Shown here: piece by piece, positions 2,559 through 49,212 of the stretch
Layout of the letters: each line of letters opens with the position of its first letter
Numbering within the stretch: position 1 is the first letter of the stretch
Origin: Dehalococcoidia bacterium UBA1162
GTDB taxonomy: Bacteria; Chloroflexota; Dehalococcoidia; GIF9; UBA5629
Length of the DNA: 64,000 nucleotides
Assembly: GCA_002311135.1 (NCBI GenBank)
Contig: DBZK01000010.1
Span: 34,755 to 98,754, forward strand
Reading direction: 5' to 3'
Program-made: the position numbers and the translations under genes
The notes under the pieces: model-generated
Database searches by the model: none
What the model saw: the letters and a program-made list of their open reading frames with translations, nothing else
Told to the model about the DNA's origin: nothing

Positions 2559-3245
2559 ATGGAAATCGAGGGGATGCATGGTTGGGATCTCAAACCCCCA
2601 GAAGCCCGTTTATTGCAAGAGATGTTAGCCGGCAACGTAGTCCGCTCAAATATCGCCATCAGACCCCAAACAATCGCTGGCATCGACGTATCAGTATCAC
2701 GTTTTTCCAGGACGGGGCGTGCGGCCGTTGTTGTCTTAAGCTATCCTTCCCTGGAACTGATCGATATTGCCACTGCTGAAGACGAAATCAACTTCCCTTA
2801 TATACCCGGGCTGCTTTCATTCAGGGAAGCACCGCTGGTCATCAAAGCCTTCCAAAAGTTGAATTGCAGGCCGGACATGATCATGGTGGATGGACAAGGC
2901 ATTGCCCACCCGCGCCGGTTGGGGATTGCCTCTCACCTGGGGCTTTTCATGGATATTATCAGCATTGGATGCGCTAAATCCCGTTTAATCGGCACACATG
3001 ATAGCTTGCCACCGGAGAAGGGGGCCTCTAAACCCCTGATTGACCAGGATGAGATAATCGGCGCTGTAGTCAGGACGAAGCATGCCGTCAACCCTCTCTT
3101 TATCTCGATCGGCCATAAGATCGATCTGAACCAATCCGTATCATTTGTTCTCAGTTGCTGCCGCGGCTTCCGCCTTCCTGAACCTACCAGGCTGGCGCAT
3201 ATGGCAGCCTGCGGAACGCTAAAATCCAACAAACTTGTAAGTTAA
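2559..3245 (+). CDS. nfi: Endonuclease V (deoxyinosine 3' endonuclease)
   Basis: Strong similarity to the Endo V core (IAGIDVS, YIPGLLSFRE, DGQGIAHPRRLGIASHLG, NPLFISIGH, LPEPTRLAH). The ORF track starts at 2493, but the internal ATG at 2559 (MEIEGMHGWDL) fits Endo V length better. Confidence 0.8.
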   Translation: MEIEGMHGWDLKPPEARLLQEMLAGNVVRSNIAIRPQTIAGIDVSVSRFSRTGRAAVVVLSYPSLELIDIATAEDEINFPYIPGLLSFREAPLVIKAFQKLNCRPDMIMVDGQGIAHPRRLGIASHLGLFMDIISIGCAKSRLIGTHDSLPPEKGASKPLIDQDEIIGAVVRTKHAVNPLFISIGHKIDLNQSVSFVLSCCRGFRLPEPTRLAHMAACGTLKSNKLVS

Positions 3246-18104: not shown

Positions 18105-19379
18105 ATGCAGGCAGATATCAATGAACTGGTGGGAAAAGCCAAACAGGCCAAAGCTGCTTCTAAAAAGCTGGCCTTCACTCCCACCAAAATAAAAAATGAT
18201 GCACTGGCAGCCATATCTCAAGCCCTGCTGGACCGGGAAGATATGATCTTACATGACAACCAGAAAGACTATAAAGAGGCCGAGGCTTCGGGCATGAGCG
18301 AAGCCATGCTCGACCGCCTGATGCTCAACTCCGGCCGGCTCAAGGGCATATCCGACGACGTGAAGACCGTTGCCGCTTTGCCCGATCCAGTGGGTGAGGT
18401 CATCGAAGAGCGCACCCTGCCCAACGGCCTTCTGCTGAGCAAGCGCCGCGTGCCCTTGGGCGTGATCGGCGCCATCTACGAGAGCAGGCCCAATGTTACC
18501 GTGGATATTTCTGTGCTGTGCCTCAAAGCAGGCAACACTGTCATACTGCGCGGCGGCAAGGAGGCCTACCGCTCCAACCTGGCGCTGGCCAGCACCGTCC
18601 AGGAAGCTGCTTACAAAGCGGGCATACCCGTTGGGTCCGTTCAGTTTATCGAGTCCACCGACCGCAGCCTGGTCGACTATATGCTCAAGCTGAAGGACAG
18701 CATCGACCTGATGATACCCCGCGGCGGCGCGGCGCTGATTAAATCCGTGAAGGATAACGCTGCCATGGCCGTGGTGGCGGGCGGCATAGGCGTCTGCCAT
18801 GCCTACGTGGATAAAACCGCCGACATCGCTAAAGCGGTGGCCATCACATACAACGCCAAGGTGCAGCGCCCCACGGTCTGCAACGCGCTGGACTGCGTGC
18901 TGGTTCACAAGGACATCGCCACCGCTTTCCTGCCCCTGATGGCGAAGGAATGGGACAAGGCAGGCGTGGAGATGCACTGCGACCAGCGCTCACTGGAAAT
19001 ACTAAAATCCATTCACGGATTAAATGTTCATCCTGCTGTAGAAGATGACTGGGGCAAGGAGTTCCTGGCCCTGGTGGGAGCCATAAAGGTGGTCGGCTCT
19101 CTCGACGAGGCGCTGGAGCACATCGACCGCTACGGCTCCGGCCATTCCGAGGCCATCATCAGCGAGGACTCGGCTTCGATCGACCGCTTCTTGAATGAGG
19201 TGGACACTGCCTGCGTTTACGCCAACGCCAGCACCCGTTTCACCGACGGCGGCCAGTTCGGTATGGGCGCCGAAATAGGGATAAGTACACAGAAATTCCA
19301 TGCCCGCGGGCCGATGGCCTTACGTGAGATCACAAGTTACAAATGGTGTATTCGGGGTAACGGACAGATCAGGCCGTAG
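18105..19379 (+). CDS. proA: Gamma-glutamyl phosphate reductase
   Basis: 424 aa aldehyde-dehydrogenase-family protein immediately after proB, with ProA-like sequence (VCNALDCVLVH). Confidence 0.9.
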   Translation: MQADINELVGKAKQAKAASKKLAFTPTKIKNDALAAISQALLDREDMILHDNQKDYKEAEASGMSEAMLDRLMLNSGRLKGISDDVKTVAALPDPVGEVIEERTLPNGLLLSKRRVPLGVIGAIYESRPNVTVDISVLCLKAGNTVILRGGKEAYRSNLALASTVQEAAYKAGIPVGSVQFIESTDRSLVDYMLKLKDSIDLMIPRGGAALIKSVKDNAAMAVVAGGIGVCHAYVDKTADIAKAVAITYNAKVQRPTVCNALDCVLVHKDIATAFLPLMAKEWDKAGVEMHCDQRSLEILKSIHGLNVHPAVEDDWGKEFLALVGAIKVVGSLDEALEHIDRYGSGHSEAIISEDSASIDRFLNEVDTACVYANASTRFTDGGQFGMGAEIGISTQKFHARGPMALREITSYKWCIRGNGQIRP

Positions 19380-19402
19380 ACGACGAAACTCTATATGCTT
19401 AT

Positions 19403-19498
19403 GTCATTGCGAGCGAAGCGAAGCAATCCTTTTAACGAAGGAAGATGGCTTGAACTAATGCCAAGGGATTGCCACGGCACTACGTGCCTCGCAATGAC
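19403..19498. repeat. Palindromic intergenic repeat, GTCATTGCGAG-armed family (copy 1)
   Basis: Forward arm GTCATTGCGAGCGAAGCGAAGCAATCC (19403-19429) and reverse arm GGGATTGCCACGGCACTACGTGCCTCGCAATGAC (19465-19498), separated by a spacer that is itself about 80% identical to the copy at 20581-20679. Confidence 0.65.
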
Positions 19499-19507
19499 CT
19501 AATATAT

Positions 19508-19565
19508 AGAATTTTGAATTTAGAACTTTTTTAGAGCTTAGAGTTTGGTCTTTAGAGTTTTAAGC
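19508..19565. repeat. TTTAGAGCTT/TTGGAATT-type low-complexity intergenic repeat (copy 1)
   Basis: GAATTTTGAATTTAGAACTTTTTTAGAGCTTAGAGTTTGGTCTTTAGAGTTTTAAG. Related copies at 20725-20760, 35293-35344, 35412-35435, 39555-39640 and 42980-43112. Confidence 0.55.
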
Positions 19566-20274
19566 CCTTGAGGGCTTCCTTCTGCTCTTCAAAAAGCTCT
19601 TTGATGCCTTTGTCAGCCAGCACGATCAGCCCGTCGACAGTTTCCTTTGAGAAGGGTTTGCCCTCAGCTGTGCCCTGCAACTCAACAAAGTCGCCTTTAT
19701 CGGTCATGACCACGTTGAAGTCCACGCCGGCGCGGAAGTCTTCGTCATAGCACAGGTCCAGCAACTTCACCCTGTCGACCACGCCCACGCTTATCGCAGC
19801 AATGGCACATTTAAACGGCATGACCTTGTAGATGCCCTGCTTCCTCAGTTTGGCTATAGCCTGGAAAAGCGCCACGTAGGCGCCCGTTATGCTGGCCGTG
19901 CGCGTGCCGCCGTCTGCCTGTAATACATCGCAGTCGACTGTGAAAGTCCTCTCGCCGAGGACGTCCATATCCACCGCTGCACGAAGGCTCCTGCCAATCA
20001 ATCTTTGGATCTCCTGAGCACGTCCCCCCTGCCGGTCCGGGTTGCGCGAGCTGCGGGTATGTGTAGCCCGTGGCAGCATGCCATACTCAGCAGTGACCCA
20101 CCCTGTCCCCTTACCCTTGAGAAAAGGCGGTACCCGGTCCTCCACGCTCACGGCGCATACCACACGCGTATTGCCCATCTGGATCAGCGCGGAGCCCTCA
20201 GGATAGTCCTGGTATCCCAGCGTTATCTTCACCGGCCTTAGCTCGTCATTGCCTCGCCCGTCTATTCTAGCCAT
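19552..20274 (-). CDS. rph: Ribonuclease PH
   Basis: 240 aa. The sequence ([14 protein letters not shown]..., [22 protein letters not shown]) is canonical RNase PH. Confidence 0.85.
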
Positions 20275-20344
20275 TTAAATACCTTCCTTATAGATTCAGG
20301 CGCAAGTATAACACCAAATAGAGATCAAATACTAAGCCATTTAT

Positions 20345-20427
20345 CCCTCTCCCCTGCCCCTCTCCACAGGAGAGGGGGTTATATTTATAAGAGGGTCTAA
20401 AGCCCCTCTTCAACGCCCCCTACCCGG
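20345..20427. repeat. Double-hairpin palindromic element CCCTCT...AGAGGG / AGAGGG...CCCTCT (copy 1)
   Basis: CCCTCTCCCCTGCCCCTCTCCACAGGAGAGGGGGTTATATTTATAAGAGGGTCTAAAGCCCCTCTTCAACGCCCCCTACCCGG, with a near-identical second copy at 32162-32232. Confidence 0.6.
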
Positions 20428-20580
20428 ACGACGTTGCCCTGGGAAAAACATGTCCCCACATCGTTAACTACGAGAAAGTAATCTTTAAATCTCCTTCAGG
20501 ATAATGAGTGTTTTCCTAAGACGTAGTGGATTCCCTCTTCAACGCCTTTTCCCTTTATTATTAAACCGGTTTCCTCAATT

Positions 20581-20724
20581 GTCATTGCGAGCGAAGCGAA
20601 GCAATCCTTTGAACGAAGGAAGAGGGCTGATTTAATGCCATGAGATTGCCACGTCGCCCTGCGGGCTCCTCGCAATGACGTGTCAAAAGGATGATTGCCG
20701 CGGCACTTCGTGCCTCGCAATGAC
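20581..20724. repeat. Palindromic intergenic repeat, GTCATTGCGAG-armed family (copy 2: one forward arm and two reverse arms)
   Basis: Forward arm at 20581-20607, reverse arms at 20644-20679 and 20689-20724. The spacer is homologous to copy 1. Confidence 0.65.
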
Positions 20725-20782
20725 GTAATACTGGAATTTGGAATTTTCTACTTTAGAAATATGCTATCCTTTTAAATTAATC

Positions 20783-21643
20783 ATGCCTGACGTAAATATA
20801 TGGGCGCTGGCCGGTACAGGACTGGTGGCAGGGACGCTGGGCTCTATGCTGGGCGTGGGCGGCGGCATCATGATGGTGCCCATACTGACACTGTGGATGG
20901 GCATACCCATGCAGTACGCCATCGGCAGCAGCCTGGTCTCGATCGTCATCAACGCCTGCACAGCCACCAGTGTATATATCGATAACCATGTGACCAACCT
21001 CAAGCTGGGACTGCTGATGTCCACTACCCTGATCCCCGGGGCGGTGGCCGGGGCCCTGCTGGCCTCCAAACTTTCCTCGCCGGTGCTCAGCTTCATATTC
21101 GGGGCGCTTATGATTTACGTTTGTTATACGCTCATCCCCAGGAAACCCAAACGGCAGAGTATGGAGGAATTCGAAGCCTCCAGGGACCCGCACGAGAAAG
21201 AGCATGCGCCGCATGCCTGGCTGGACGGCAGCTACTACGATCCATCCGTTAAGCAGGAGATCAGCTATCAGACGCACCGTCCGGCCACAGGCATGGCGAC
21301 CGGGTTTTTCGGCGGGGTCATCTCCAGCCTTCTGGGAGTGGGCGGCGGCATTGTCAACGTGCCCGTCTTGAACCTGCTGATGAAGGTGCCCATCAAGGCT
21401 GCCATAGCCACCAGCAGCCTGCTGCTGGCCTTTACTACTATGACCGGCTCACTGATCTACGCTTATAACGGCTACGTTATGCCCTATATCATAGCGCCGC
21501 TCATTCCCGGCATTTTCCTGGGTGCCCGGCTGGGTACATTCATCGCCCGGCGTGTCCGGAGCGCCGCTTTGATTGTGATATTTATCGTCTTCCTGCTGGT
21601 AACCTCGGTCTTAATGATTCTGCGTGCCCTGAATATATTATGA
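20783..21643 (+). CDS. TauE/SafE-family sulfite/anion exporter membrane protein
   Basis: Polytopic protein with an internally duplicated 4-TM repeat bearing GxGGG motifs (GVGGGIMMVP and GVGGGIVNVP). The ATG at 20783 is preferred, since the ORF-track start would overlap the repeat element. Confidence 0.7.
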   Translation: MPDVNIWALAGTGLVAGTLGSMLGVGGGIMMVPILTLWMGIPMQYAIGSSLVSIVINACTATSVYIDNHVTNLKLGLLMSTTLIPGAVAGALLASKLSSPVLSFIFGALMIYVCYTLIPRKPKRQSMEEFEASRDPHEKEHAPHAWLDGSYYDPSVKQEISYQTHRPATGMATGFFGGVISSLLGVGGGIVNVPVLNLLMKVPIKAAIATSSLLLAFTTMTGSLIYAYNGYVMPYIIAPLIPGIFLGARLGTFIARRVRSAALIVIFIVFLLVTSVLMILRALNIL

Positions 21644-32108: not shown

Positions 32109-32161
32109 TGATGATTTATCCCCTCATGTAAAGACCGAGCATAGGTAACACCTTAAACCGG

Positions 32162-32232
32162 CCCTCTCCCGATGGAAGAGGGAATTCTATATATAAGAGG
32201 GGCTAAAGCCCCTCTTCAACACCCCTTGCCCG
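32162..32232. repeat. Double-hairpin palindromic element CCCTCT...AGAGGG (copy 2)
   Basis: CCCTCTCCCGATGGAAGAGGGAATTCTATATATAAGAGGGGCTAAAGCCCCTCTTCAACACCCCTTGCCCGG, homologous to 20345-20427. Confidence 0.6.
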
Positions 32233-32318
32233 GTCAGCCTTACTTTTAGAACACATCTCCCGCGTCGCTGGTTACGAATTGGGAAGGAGTTCCCTCCTCA
32301 AAGCCTGCCTATTCAAAC

Positions 32319-32346
32319 GTCATTGCGAGCGATAGCGTGGCAATCC
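32319..32346. repeat. GTCATTGCGAG-family repeat (solo forward arm, copy 3)
   Basis: GTCATTGCGAGCGATAGCGTGGCAATCC, followed by an unrelated small hairpin TTCACCGATTGACC...GGTCGGTGAA at 32362-32389. Confidence 0.55.
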
Positions 32347-32437
32347 TTTATTAACTCACGTTCACCGATTGACCTCTCGGTCGGTGAAATGGCATAATTC
32401 AAAATCCAACTTAAAATAAAACCCCGGAGGTCTAACT

Positions 32438-34048: not shown

Positions 34049-35296
34049 TTGCTGAATTATTTTAAACGTAATGAGACCCTGCTCATTCTCTGCATAGCGG
34101 GCATGCTCATGAACATGGGGATGGGTCAGGTCAGCCCCATACTGGCGCTGTATGCCCGGCAGTTCGGCATAAACATGACGCTGGTCGGACTCATCATAAC
34201 CGCTTTTGCCTTTGCCAGCGCCATCGTGGATATCCCGGCAGGCAGAATTGCCGAGCGGCTGGGCCGCCGCCCCACCCTTATCGCAGGCTGTCTGGTGCTG
34301 GCTGCCGGGTCGGTGGGATGTGCGCTGGCACCCGGCTACTGGCTTTTTGTGGTCTGCCGCCTTATTCAGGGTACCGGCTACGCCCTCTACACCACCACAG
34401 CTATGATCATGCTGACTGATATAAGTACCGTGCATAACCGCGGCAACAATATGGGATGGTATATGGGCAGCGCATGGATCGGCTTCGGCCTGGGACCGAT
34501 CAGCGGCGGCTTTATCGGCCAGTACTTCGGCTTGCCGGCAGTATTCTATGTGTATGCCTTTTTCTGCGCGCTGGCAGCGGTTTGGGCCTTCCTGCGACTG
34601 CCCGAGACTCACCACTACCATGCCAGACAATCAATTGCAGAGCCGGGTGATCGTCCGCCTGCAACGGGAGCAAGGCTTAGCATCAAAGATCTGCTGGTCA
34701 ACCCCAATTTTATGCTGATCTGCCTCATTGCTTTTTGCGTATTCTTTACCAACGACGGATCACGATATCAAATATTGCCGCTGCTTTCTCATGACCGCCT
34801 CGGCCTAACCCCGAGCGAAATAGGTTTGGCTGTGACCGTAATAGCCGCGGCCAATATAATTGTGCAGCTGATCATCGGAAGGCTATCCGACAAGGTGGGC
34901 AGAAAGCCCATGATCCTCCCCGGGTGCATTCTCCTGGCAGTCTCTCTGGTGATATGGATGCTGAGTGCCAATTACCAGTTCATACTCTTAGGTTGTATAG
35001 TATTCGGGATAGGCATAGGCATAACCGGGCCCACCCCGGCCGCATACGTAGCCGACATACTTTCGGGCCAAAACTCCAGCGGCGGTATGAGCATCTTCAG
35101 GACGGCCTGCGACCTGGGCTTCGTCGTCGGCCCTGTTTTCCAGGGATGGCTGGCAGATATGAACGGATTTGATTTCCCGCTGATCTTCAATGCCGTCCTG
35201 CTGTTCACAGCCGCGCTGGTTTTCCAGATCGTGGCCAGGGAGCACCCTTCCTTTGCAGCCCGGAACAACACGAAGCCAATAAACACTAAGTTCTAA
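34049..35296 (+). CDS. MFS transporter
   Basis: 12-TM architecture with an MFS signature GRIAERLGRRP in loop 2-3. The TTG start at 34049 is uncertain. Confidence 0.7.
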   Translation: MLNYFKRNETLLILCIAGMLMNMGMGQVSPILALYARQFGINMTLVGLIITAFAFASAIVDIPAGRIAERLGRRPTLIAGCLVLAAGSVGCALAPGYWLFVVCRLIQGTGYALYTTTAMIMLTDISTVHNRGNNMGWYMGSAWIGFGLGPISGGFIGQYFGLPAVFYVYAFFCALAAVWAFLRLPETHHYHARQSIAEPGDRPPATGARLSIKDLLVNPNFMLICLIAFCVFFTNDGSRYQILPLLSHDRLGLTPSEIGLAVTVIAAANIIVQLIIGRLSDKVGRKPMILPGCILLAVSLVIWMLSANYQFILLGCIVFGIGIGITGPTPAAYVADILSGQNSSGGMSIFRTACDLGFVVGPVFQGWLADMNGFDFPLIFNAVLLFTAALVFQIVAREHPSFAARNNTKPINTKF

Positions 35297-35435
35297 ACAA
35301 GTTCAAAACTCAAAGCTTAAACAATATTGGAATTTGGTTGAGAGATTGCTCCGCTGTCGCTCGCAATGACCTGTTTCCTGAATTGTCATTGCGAGGTTGG
35401 TTGATGGATTGCTTTTTAGAGCTTAGAATTTCCCC
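35293..35435. repeat. Composite intergenic repeat block: TTTAGAGCTT-type units flanking GTCATTGCGAG-family arms (copy 4)
   Basis: CTAAACAAGTTCAAAACTCAAAGCTTAAACAATATTGGAATTTGG (35293-35344), reverse arm GATTGCTCCGCTGTCGCTCGCAATGAC (35345-35370), forward arm GTCATTGCGAGGTTGGTTGATGGATTGC (35384-35411), then TTTTTAGAGCTTAGAATTT. Confidence 0.6.
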
Positions 35436-39515: not shown

Positions 39516-39554
39516 GTTAAATAAGCTGAAGGGGGGATCAACCCTCCTTCAGCT

Positions 39555-39640
39555 CGAAATAAGTTCAAAGCTCAAAGCCTAAATTTGAATTTTGTATTTT
39601 GGGTTTGTTTAGGATTTAGTATTTAGGGTTTAGTGTTTCA
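39555..39640. repeat. TTTAGAGCTT/TTGGAATT-type low-complexity intergenic repeat (copy, convergent gene junction)
   Basis: AAGTTCAAAGCTCAAAGCCTAAATTTGAATTTTGTATTTTGGGTTTGTTTAGGATTTAGTATTTAGGGTTTAGTG. Confidence 0.55.
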
Positions 39641-39652
39641 CCGAAGGGGTTG

Positions 39653-42979: not shown

Positions 42980-43112
42980 AAACTCTAAATACTAAATCCT
43001 AAACAAATTCCAAACTCCAAATGTTACTATGGTTGGGTTTTGAGTTTTGAACTTATTTAGAGCTTGGAGTTTAGTATTTAGAATTTGAAATTTGTTTGGA
43101 GCTTGGAATTTT
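42980..43112. repeat. Long imperfect palindrome built from TTTAGAGCTT/TTGGAGTT-type units
   Basis: AAACTCTAAATACTAAATCCTAAACAAATTCCAAACTCCAAA (42980-43021) is the approximate reverse complement of TTTGGAGCTTGGAGTTTAGTATTTAGAATTTGAAATTTGTTTGGAGCTTGGAATT (43060-43112). Shares its core with the copies at 19508, 35293 and 39555. Confidence 0.6.
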
Positions 43113-48863: not shown

Positions 48864-49212
48864 TGGTGGAGGCGAGGGAGGGTCGAACTCCCCGTCCAGA
48901 AAAAAGTTGCCAGCACTTCTACAGGCTTAGTCTGCACTTTAATGTTGCCCGATTAACCTCTACAGGCGGAGTTTAAACGGGCCAGCCGGTTAAGTCTTAG
49001 ACAATCCCTACCGGCGTTGGGACTGTTGCATCCCGGCATTTCGTCGCCCAATCCCATCCCACCGGGACGAGGAAGGGTTGGACGAGCTGCCTATTTAGGC
49101 TGCTACTGGAACTGCTTCTTCTGCAGTTGTGTTTTGCCACCTGATTAGCGAGGTAGATGGCACCTCGGCCTGCCGTACTGTGGGCTCTTCCCTGTCGAAG
49201 CCACGCGCCCCC
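48864..49212 (-). ncRNA. ssrA: tmRNA (SsrA)
   Basis: The minus strand reads 5' GGGGGCGCGUGGCUUCGACAGG...GGGAGUUCGACCCUCCCUCGCCUCCACCA 3', showing tRNA-Ala-like acceptor/T-arm ends with encoded CCA. An internal reading frame GCA GAA GAA GCA GUU CCA GUA GCA GCC UAA predicts the tag (A)AEEAVPVAA. smpB lies directly upstream. Confidence 0.85.

Follow-up and report, generated by a model that had tools for sequence, protein, structure and literature searches.

Dispersed hairpin repeats of an uncultured Dehalococcoidia bacterium as probable Ssn-related motifs of an ATTGC stem type

In many phyla, homologues of the ssnA gene are flanked by the NTS repeat of Neisseria, CGTCATTCCCGCGMAVGCGGGAATCYRG, or by Ssn-related motifs (SRM) (Chenal et al., Nat Commun 2025, PMC11893778). 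SsnA is a 94-aa single-domain protein of the GIY-YIG type (CDD cd10448). The purified protein binds the hairpin only as single-stranded DNA (ssDNA), on one strand only, and cuts it a few bases upstream, without acting on double-stranded DNA (dsDNA) or RNA and without binding RNA (PMC11893778). For cutting, the most important positions are the three bases that precede the palindrome, part of the CGTC head in NTS, and for binding it is the C that follows it; binding and upstream cutting of the single strand have been shown for the Neisseria and Wolbachia homologues only (PMC11893778). In N. meningitidis, SsnA lowers the integration of NTS-bearing transforming DNA (PMC11893778). An SRM is found near 71% of the SsnA homologues and 42% are flanked on both sides, 19% of the genomes with more than 200 SRMs are devoid of a homologue, and a likeness of the system to insertion sequences was offered by its discoverers as a hypothesis only (PMC11893778). 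Here, a family of dispersed hairpin repeats from Dehalococcoidia bacterium UBA1162, located in a 64-kb stretch of contig DBZK01000010.1 (64,000 nucleotides, called the window throughout), is compared with that system.

Repeat units of the window and their hairpin

The 11-mer GTCATTGCGAG is present in the window in exactly eight copies, at 19403+, 19488-, 20581+, 20669-, 20714-, 32319+, 35360- and 35385+. In dinucleotide-preserving shuffles, with up to one mismatch allowed, the mean was 1.12 copies and the maximum four, and eight were reached in none of 100. Reading of the sequence together with a scan for the full architecture showed that the eight heads, distributed over four loci, correspond to seven complete units with a GCAATC tail and one remnant (Table 1). 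They form two inverted doublets, of which that at 20581 has a third unit in addition; of the other two loci, one holds a solo unit and the other a unit accompanied by the remnant. The dispersed palindromic repeats that the initial annotation of this DNA had described at four loci are therefore real. At the last locus (35345-35411), where it had described arms in swapped order, the head of the unit at 35344-35370 points inward, toward the second arm; this second arm is only a remnant, which is devoid of both the inner hairpin and the GCAATC tail and whose GGATTGC is the start of a lost reverse arm.

Table 1. Ssn-related-type units and remnant in the window
Feature	Position	Strand	Basis or remark
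SRM-type hairpin unit GTCATTGCGAG-CGAAGCGAA-GCAATC; left arm of doublet 19403-19498	19403..19428	+	T at -1
SRM-type hairpin unit GTCATTGCGAG-GCACGTAGTGCCGTG-GCAATC; right arm of doublet 19403-19498	19467..19498	-	fold as lone ssDNA -8.5 kcal/mol, z = -3.3
SRM-type unit; left arm of doublet 20581-20679	20581..20606	+	head match and architecture scan
SRM-type unit with inner hairpin GCCC-GCA-GGGC	20644..20679	-	head match and architecture scan
Extra SRM-type unit, in tandem with the unit at 20644-20679	20693..20724	-	92% identity to 19467-19504 (repeat family D12)
Solo SRM-type unit at the 3' end of composite repeat 32140-32350	32319..32345	+	head match and architecture scan
SRM-type unit with its head inward, toward the remnant at 35385	35344..35370	-	head match and architecture scan
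Remnant: intact head GTCATTGCGAG, then GTTGGTTGATG-GATTGC	35385..35411	+	head match; missed by the architecture scan

The doublets at 19403-19498 and 20581-20679 are 86% identical across their full length, spacer included, which agrees with the spacer identity of about 80% estimated initially. Likewise, all four loci are intergenic and divided between the two kinds of gene junction, as had been claimed. With gene identities taken from Pfam, two junctions are convergent (proA/rph and MFS transporter/CoA ligase) and two divergent (rph/TauE and methyltransferase/acyl-CoA dehydrogenase). The rph gene is thus bracketed by the repeats, with a doublet on its downstream side and the three-unit cluster on its upstream side. 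The region is also carried by ENA ERZ27250166 contig k141_567524 and by NCBI GCA_050011675.1.

The units, which conform to YGTCATT-GCGAG...CGWRGC-AATC-Y, share with NTS both the head (YGTCATT) and the tail (AATC-Y). Since the relation to a nuclease gene described below is shared as well, the repeats of the window are, by analogy with NTS, very probably Ssn-related motifs of an ATTGC stem type, that is, hairpins of the kind recognised by a cognate Ssn elsewhere.

The working unit of the family is a single arm of 26-36 nt and not the pair of about 96 nt that had been taken as the element. Each arm is laid out as (Y)GTC-ATTGC-GA-(variable small hairpin)-GCAAT-C, which can also be written YGTCATTGCGAG...GCAATC. 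When the window units are combined with units from the 120 loci listed in other genomes, the consensus becomes GTC-ATTGC-GA-G(variable hairpin)C-G(A/T/C)(A/G)-GCAAT-C. The predicted fold comprises an ATTGC/GCAAT outer stem, a 2 x 3 internal loop in which GA stands opposite GNR, and an inner hairpin of free sequence, the commonest insert being the mini-hairpin GCGAAGC. The orienting, non-palindromic GTC precedes ATTGC in 8/8 window heads, and the C directly 3' of the palindrome is present, as GCAAT-C, in seven of the eight; at position -1 a pyrimidine (C or T) is found in 81 of 82 doublets. Several kinds of loop are predicted among 285 units (a GNA triloop in 58, another triloop in 60 and a tetraloop in 77), and for that reason the GNA triloop, a candidate signature of DNA hairpins, was not used as evidence.

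Pairing within the arm was analysed in 29 distinct 32-nt units from different genomes, in which the outer stem, the GTC and the C after GCAAT are invariant by construction, since the search pattern contained them. Of the five inner pairs, four vary at both partners. The number of compensatory cells was 19, against 4.3 in shuffles, and as many were reached in none of 500; paired cells amounted to 85.9%, compared with 17-56% when the partner columns were slid. At two inner positions Watson-Crick pairs alternate with tandem G.A/A.G. These results support selection on the inner hairpin of each arm. Together, covariation and ssDNA folds point to an inverted repeat of 20-50 nt able to form a hairpin. 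Because the covariation supports pairing within the arm, every arm makes up a separate hairpin. The doublet can also adopt the fold that had been drawn for the pair, a long stem with a loop of about 45 nt at its end, but this is not the fold that covariation supports.

Covariation of a hairpin would also be compatible with structured small RNAs, as had been suggested for the family, or with cis-acting RNA hairpins such as terminators or stabilisers, and the location of two loci between convergent genes fits such a function. However, two of the four loci lie between divergent genes, both orientations of the unit occur within one locus, and the Neisseria homologue of the nuclease binds neither RNA nor dsDNA (PMC11893778). 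Moreover, no Rfam family matches the units: at the gathering threshold only a tmRNA was detected in the whole window, and at E <= 10 the regions 19380-19580 and 20280-20780 gave only chance-level matches to miRNA and CRISPR repeats. Terminator-like sites coinciding with units were not found in the scanned region 19300-20850. A function of the units as RNA is consequently very unlikely.

Distribution of the unit and its association with a GIY-YIG gene

A scan of genomes with GTCATTGCGAG-N8-24-GCAATC, using one genome per species, returned at least 120 loci. The matches listed belong to Pseudomonadota, Chloroflexota, Planctomycetota, Bacteroidota, Bacillota, Cyanobacteriota, Patescibacteria, Nitrospirota and other phyla; at a finer level, they include Alpha- and Gammaproteobacteria (with many Bradyrhizobium and sphingomonads), Oscillospiraceae, Sporomusa, Zixibacteria and Helicobacter. 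The head-outward inverted doublet, 66-121 nt long, is the dominant arrangement, accounting for 84 of 113 neighbouring pairs among the matches listed. On plasmids the ATTGC-type unit is rare (3/72,556 records), and the GenBank phages that carry it are five, all of them Helicobacter prophages. In IMG/VR contigs it is common (at least 120 stretches); none of the 120 viral loci among the matches listed contained a GIY-YIG gene matching the search motif.

The arrangement of the units varies in some of the loci compared, which are designated here by L numbers. In the Helicobacter prophage L124 (BK070154.1) a unit at 3001-3036 falls within the coding region annotated for a Mu-like transposase, which would reflect either an insertion or an over-extended annotation. 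One IMG/VR contig contains 15 units, and arrays were noted at L148, L202, L164 and L282. At L202 five same-strand units follow each other at a spacing of 56 nt (1257-1481), at L148 three forward units precede an ssn gene and three reverse units follow it (1371-1942), and at L164 many units lie downstream of its own ssn gene. Such arrays suggest nested or tandem amplification.

Clustering of the open reading frames (ORFs) over the 120 listed genomic loci yielded as recurrent families only generic ones, for instance ABC ATPases, and no recurrent transposase family. The cluster of GIY-YIG proteins is small (3 loci), yet its genes are physically nested in the repeats. In L073 (Oscillospiraceae) and L089 (Planctomycetota) a small GIY-YIG gene, assigned by Pfam to PF01541 with E = 1e-16 and 6e-18, is located exactly between the arms of a doublet, and a single-domain GIY-YIG gene stands between inverted ATTGC-type units in L073, L089, L173, L178, L186 and others. 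The smallest complete cassette, that of L173, measures 356 bp: a unit is followed within a few bases by the start codon of a frame of about 95 codons, and an inverted unit closes the cassette. The protein family is very large, and many of its members are found on very short contigs, as would be anticipated because repeats are expected to break assemblies. In the PDB no structure of the Ssn family was found, the nearest entries being the N-terminal domain of UvrC and UPF0213 BH0048 (E about 0.02-0.03). Literature searches on GIY-YIG proteins with REP or MITE, and on COG2827/UPF0213/YhbQ, retrieved nothing relevant; that with the repeat sequence retrieved only unrelated primers, and no follow-up papers to the Ssn study were found.

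The association was quantified in a set of 80 metagenomic loci with homologues of the protein (L126-L205; tblastn E <= 2e-31). The GTCATTGCGAG head occurs within 250 nt of the gene in 21 of them and, with heads outward, on both sides in 13, where a back-of-envelope estimate of the chance expectation is about 0.002 heads per 250-nt flank. When a generic architecture was scored instead (GTC, A plus four bases, loop, complement, then C), the gene was flanked on both sides in 56/80 loci and on at least one side in 76/80, against a background of 0.3 units per kb in the remainder of these loci. The flanking units comprise at least 11 stem types (ATTCT, ATTGC, ATCCT, ACCCT, ATGCT, ATTCC, ATCCC and others), with designs such as GTCATTCTGAG...GAAGAATC, GTCATCCTGAG...GAAGGATC, GTCACCCTGAG...GGGTC and GTCATTCCGAA...GGAATC. 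ATTGC is the second commonest stem, with 28 flanking units, behind ATTCT with 55. The flanking architecture is that described for the SsnA homologues and the fractions are similar to the published ones.

The nested gene bears directly on two kinds of mobile element that had been considered for the family. REP elements begin with a 5' head GT[AG]G followed by an imperfect palindrome. Inverted doublets of palindromic units, intergenic and present in many copies, are formally the layout of REPINs, and the repeats could be REP/REPIN elements mobilised by a REP-associated tyrosine transposase (RAYT), which is a Y1 transposase of the HUH class. The head is nevertheless (Y)GTCAT and not GT[AG]G, the only gene nested between units encodes a GIY-YIG nuclease and not a Y1 transposase, and no transposase recurs among the ORFs of the 120 listed loci. 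Mobilisation by a RAYT is thus exceedingly improbable, and the RAYT partner postulated initially has to be given up, its place between the repeats of other genomes being taken by the nuclease. The broader idea of REP-like, possibly recombinogenic elements conserved as whole units came close to the truth, as the repeats are nuclease-tied hairpins often arranged in REPIN-like inverted doublets.

The second kind is that of MITEs, transposable elements of miniature size bounded by inverted repeats, derived from an insertion sequence with a DDE transposase, for which GTCATTGCGAG would be the terminal inverted repeat. Terminal inverted repeats surrounding a short variable core, and the coexistence of miniature and gene-carrying versions, are features that such elements would display. 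Target-site duplications, the check proposed for this reading, were looked for as flanking direct repeats and were absent at 74/82 doublets, a figure indistinguishable from that of shuffled flank pairs (78.2/82). In addition, the enclosed gene encodes a 95-aa GIY-YIG nuclease and not a DDE transposase, and solo and tandem same-strand units are common. A MITE origin is therefore scarcely credible.

Status of the repeats in the host lineage and possible mobility

Several points weigh against the assignment of the window repeats to the SRM family. There is no ssn gene within the 64-kb window. The published degenerate SRM pattern, HGTCWYN(0-2)YYVSBRHN(0-5)WNVSBRGN(0-2)RNCYNB, has 0 matches in the window and recognises none of the units, while it does match the NTS of Neisseria; hence membership rests on the architecture and on the gene association and not on the operational pattern of the authors. 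The flanked proteins would be linked to SsnA by their size, their single GIY-YIG domain and their SRM flanks, and not by direct alignment or by cd10448. The biological role of the system beyond Neisseria was unknown to the authors of the Ssn study too (PMC11893778). Finally, for three of the four loci, namely the proA/rph doublet, the unit at 32319 and the pair at 35344-35411, contigs of the same species showed no presence/absence polymorphism. The copies are fixed at identical spacing in all the strains recovered, so that there is no sign of recent movement or of current activity. With regard to the pattern, it matches 4/80 of the ssn-homologue loci, against 76/80 with the generic architecture test, and because so few are matched it is an incomplete operational filter and not a definition of the family.

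The absence of the gene and the fixation of the copies are also what would be observed if the units were orphan or fossil SRMs, members of the family by descent whose cognate nuclease was lost in the Dehalococcoidia lineage. They would then be inert leftovers and at most substrates of recombination or local DNA structures. One copy is already degraded (35385-35411), and SRM-rich genomes without an SsnA homologue have been reported, as mentioned above (PMC11893778). However, seven units keep perfect heads and tails, and their inner hairpins are intact in spite of being different, which suggests ongoing constraint or recent spread; besides, the genome exceeds 2 Mb, of which 64 kb is a small part. 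The orphan state is, on this balance, a rather unlikely explanation, albeit one with some weight.

If the window repeats are SRMs served by a nuclease, their behaviour can be outlined after the Neisseria and Wolbachia precedents. The unit would act as an imperfect DNA hairpin whose palindrome is oriented by the (Y)GTC head before it and followed immediately by a C. A forward unit would fold when the surrounding DNA is single-stranded, and the cognate Ssn (about 94 aa), if encoded, would bind the folded unit and cut the strand immediately 5' of YGTC. Applied to a head-outward doublet, this would place one cut at each outer border, on opposite strands. Sites may become available for cutting in transforming DNA that enters the cell or in intermediates of replication or repair, and cutting would modulate recombination around the flanked genes. 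In this regard, the position of rph between a doublet and a three-unit cluster recalls the recombination-lowering NTS-gene-NTS layout of Neisseria. The units would multiply by way of the nuclease; a hydrolytic GIY-YIG enzyme alone cannot rejoin DNA. The doublets would represent the gene-less form of the compact SRM-ssn-inverted SRM cassette of other genomes, in a relation analogous to that of REPINs to the RAYT.

A more far-reaching proposal is that SRM-ssn-SRM cassettes and gene-less doublets are mobile elements of a class of their own, driven by a GIY-YIG ssDNA nuclease of hydrolytic action in place of a recombinase of the DDE, HUH or serine/tyrosine type. By horizontal spread the ATTGC type would have reached most bacterial phyla as well as phage contigs, and the doublets of the window would be non-autonomous, REPIN-like copies. 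The near-identity of the unit across phyla, the assembly breaks at the repeats, the nested and symmetric arrays such as that of L148 and the lack of target duplications are compatible with this class, which is put forward tentatively, as a possibility that we would not yet call probable.

The window contains further repeats. A longer composite repeat relates 20330-20612 to the homologous segment 32140-32350; it consists of G+C-rich hairpins, CCCCTCTCC-ACA-GGAGAGGGG and AAGAGGGNC-TAA-AGCCCCTCTT, a variable stretch and then an SRM unit, so that the same upstream module precedes both the first doublet arm (20581) and the apparently solo unit (32319). Its first hairpin, at 20357-20377, scores as terminator-like. 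An A+T-rich family of TTTAGAGCTTAGAGTTT-like motifs, partly in inverted pairs, is found at 19512-19563, 35280-35323, 35415-35431, 39551-39641 and 42980-43111 (9 matches against 0.2 expected), adjoining two SRM loci and other gene ends. The tmRNA gene lies at 48864-49212 on the minus strand and is a full-length match to Rfam RF00023 (161 bits, E = 1.3e-63).

Strains of the same species differ in the region upstream of rph (window 20275-20760). Three arrangements were found: TauE and the SRM cluster, as in the window; AbiJ-like and rve-integrase genes (L002 and L003, with the rve gene also in L211); and a 211-aa ORF adjoining a methyltransferase/Mrr-like gene (L206 and L207). The homology break falls inside the CCCCTCTCC hairpin. 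At the other end of rph, two contigs of the same species from other samples (L208 and L209) break off 51 nt downstream of the proA stop codon, shortly behind the first arm of the doublet, which suggests that the assemblers meet the repeat many times in the genome.

Comparison with known systems

A known system explains the repeats, and what is new here is the stem type, the host lineage and a gap in the published search motif. Through the comparison, a repeat without annotation from an uncultured Dehalococcoidia is assigned to a system whose characterisation dates from 2025 only. The comparison goes beyond the text of Chenal et al. in that ATTGC is among the commonest and most widely spread SRM stem types. 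The published pattern misses ATTGC and most of the other stem types around the ssn homologues in the 80-locus sample, and the published SRM counts are consequently probably underestimates. Moreover, every stem type may represent a new specificity of a site-specific ssDNA nuclease, which is of practical value. The cassettes themselves may be either mobile elements or domesticated regulators of recombination.

Among the systems described, that of Ssn and NTS is the closest. In both, the unit is a multi-copy, intergenic, imperfect hairpin of 26-36 nt with a (C/T)GTCATT head and an AATC-Y tail, which elsewhere flanks, in inverted orientation, a gene for a single-domain GIY-YIG protein of about 95 aa, and which exists in many stem specificities. 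The differences lie in the stem, which is ATTCCCGC/GCGGGAAT in NTS and ATTGC/GCAAT here, where it is accompanied by the GA/GNR internal loop and a variable inner hairpin, and in the host, an uncultured Dehalococcoidia whose 64-kb window is without an ssn gene. With the genes of GIY-YIG homing endonucleases (I-TevI and the Seg proteins) the Ssn-type genes share the catalytic fold and the notion of a selfish gene that may spread by cutting DNA. Homing enzymes, however, possess separate DNA-binding domains and cut dsDNA at a unique allele, and dispersed hairpin repeats do not flank their genes.

The IS200/IS605 elements and their miniature PATE derivatives are likewise compact, produce no target-site duplication and have hairpin ends recognised as ssDNA. 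Their ends are asymmetric, with distinct left and right hairpins, and they insert next to a specific tetra- or pentanucleotide, whereas here a single unit, present in inverted copies, supplies both ends and the gene encodes a GIY-YIG nuclease of about 95 aa. The REP/BIME/REPIN-RAYT systems offer a similar parallel. They too are made of hairpin repeats with an orienting 5' head, for which the inverted doublet is a common form, together with a protein gene flanked by its own repeats and an ssDNA hairpin as the presumed substrate. They differ in the head sequence and in the enzyme, which here is a hydrolytic GIY-YIG nuclease that forms no covalent tyrosine intermediate. Finally, REP families are species-specific, whereas the ATTGC-type unit is nearly identical across phyla.

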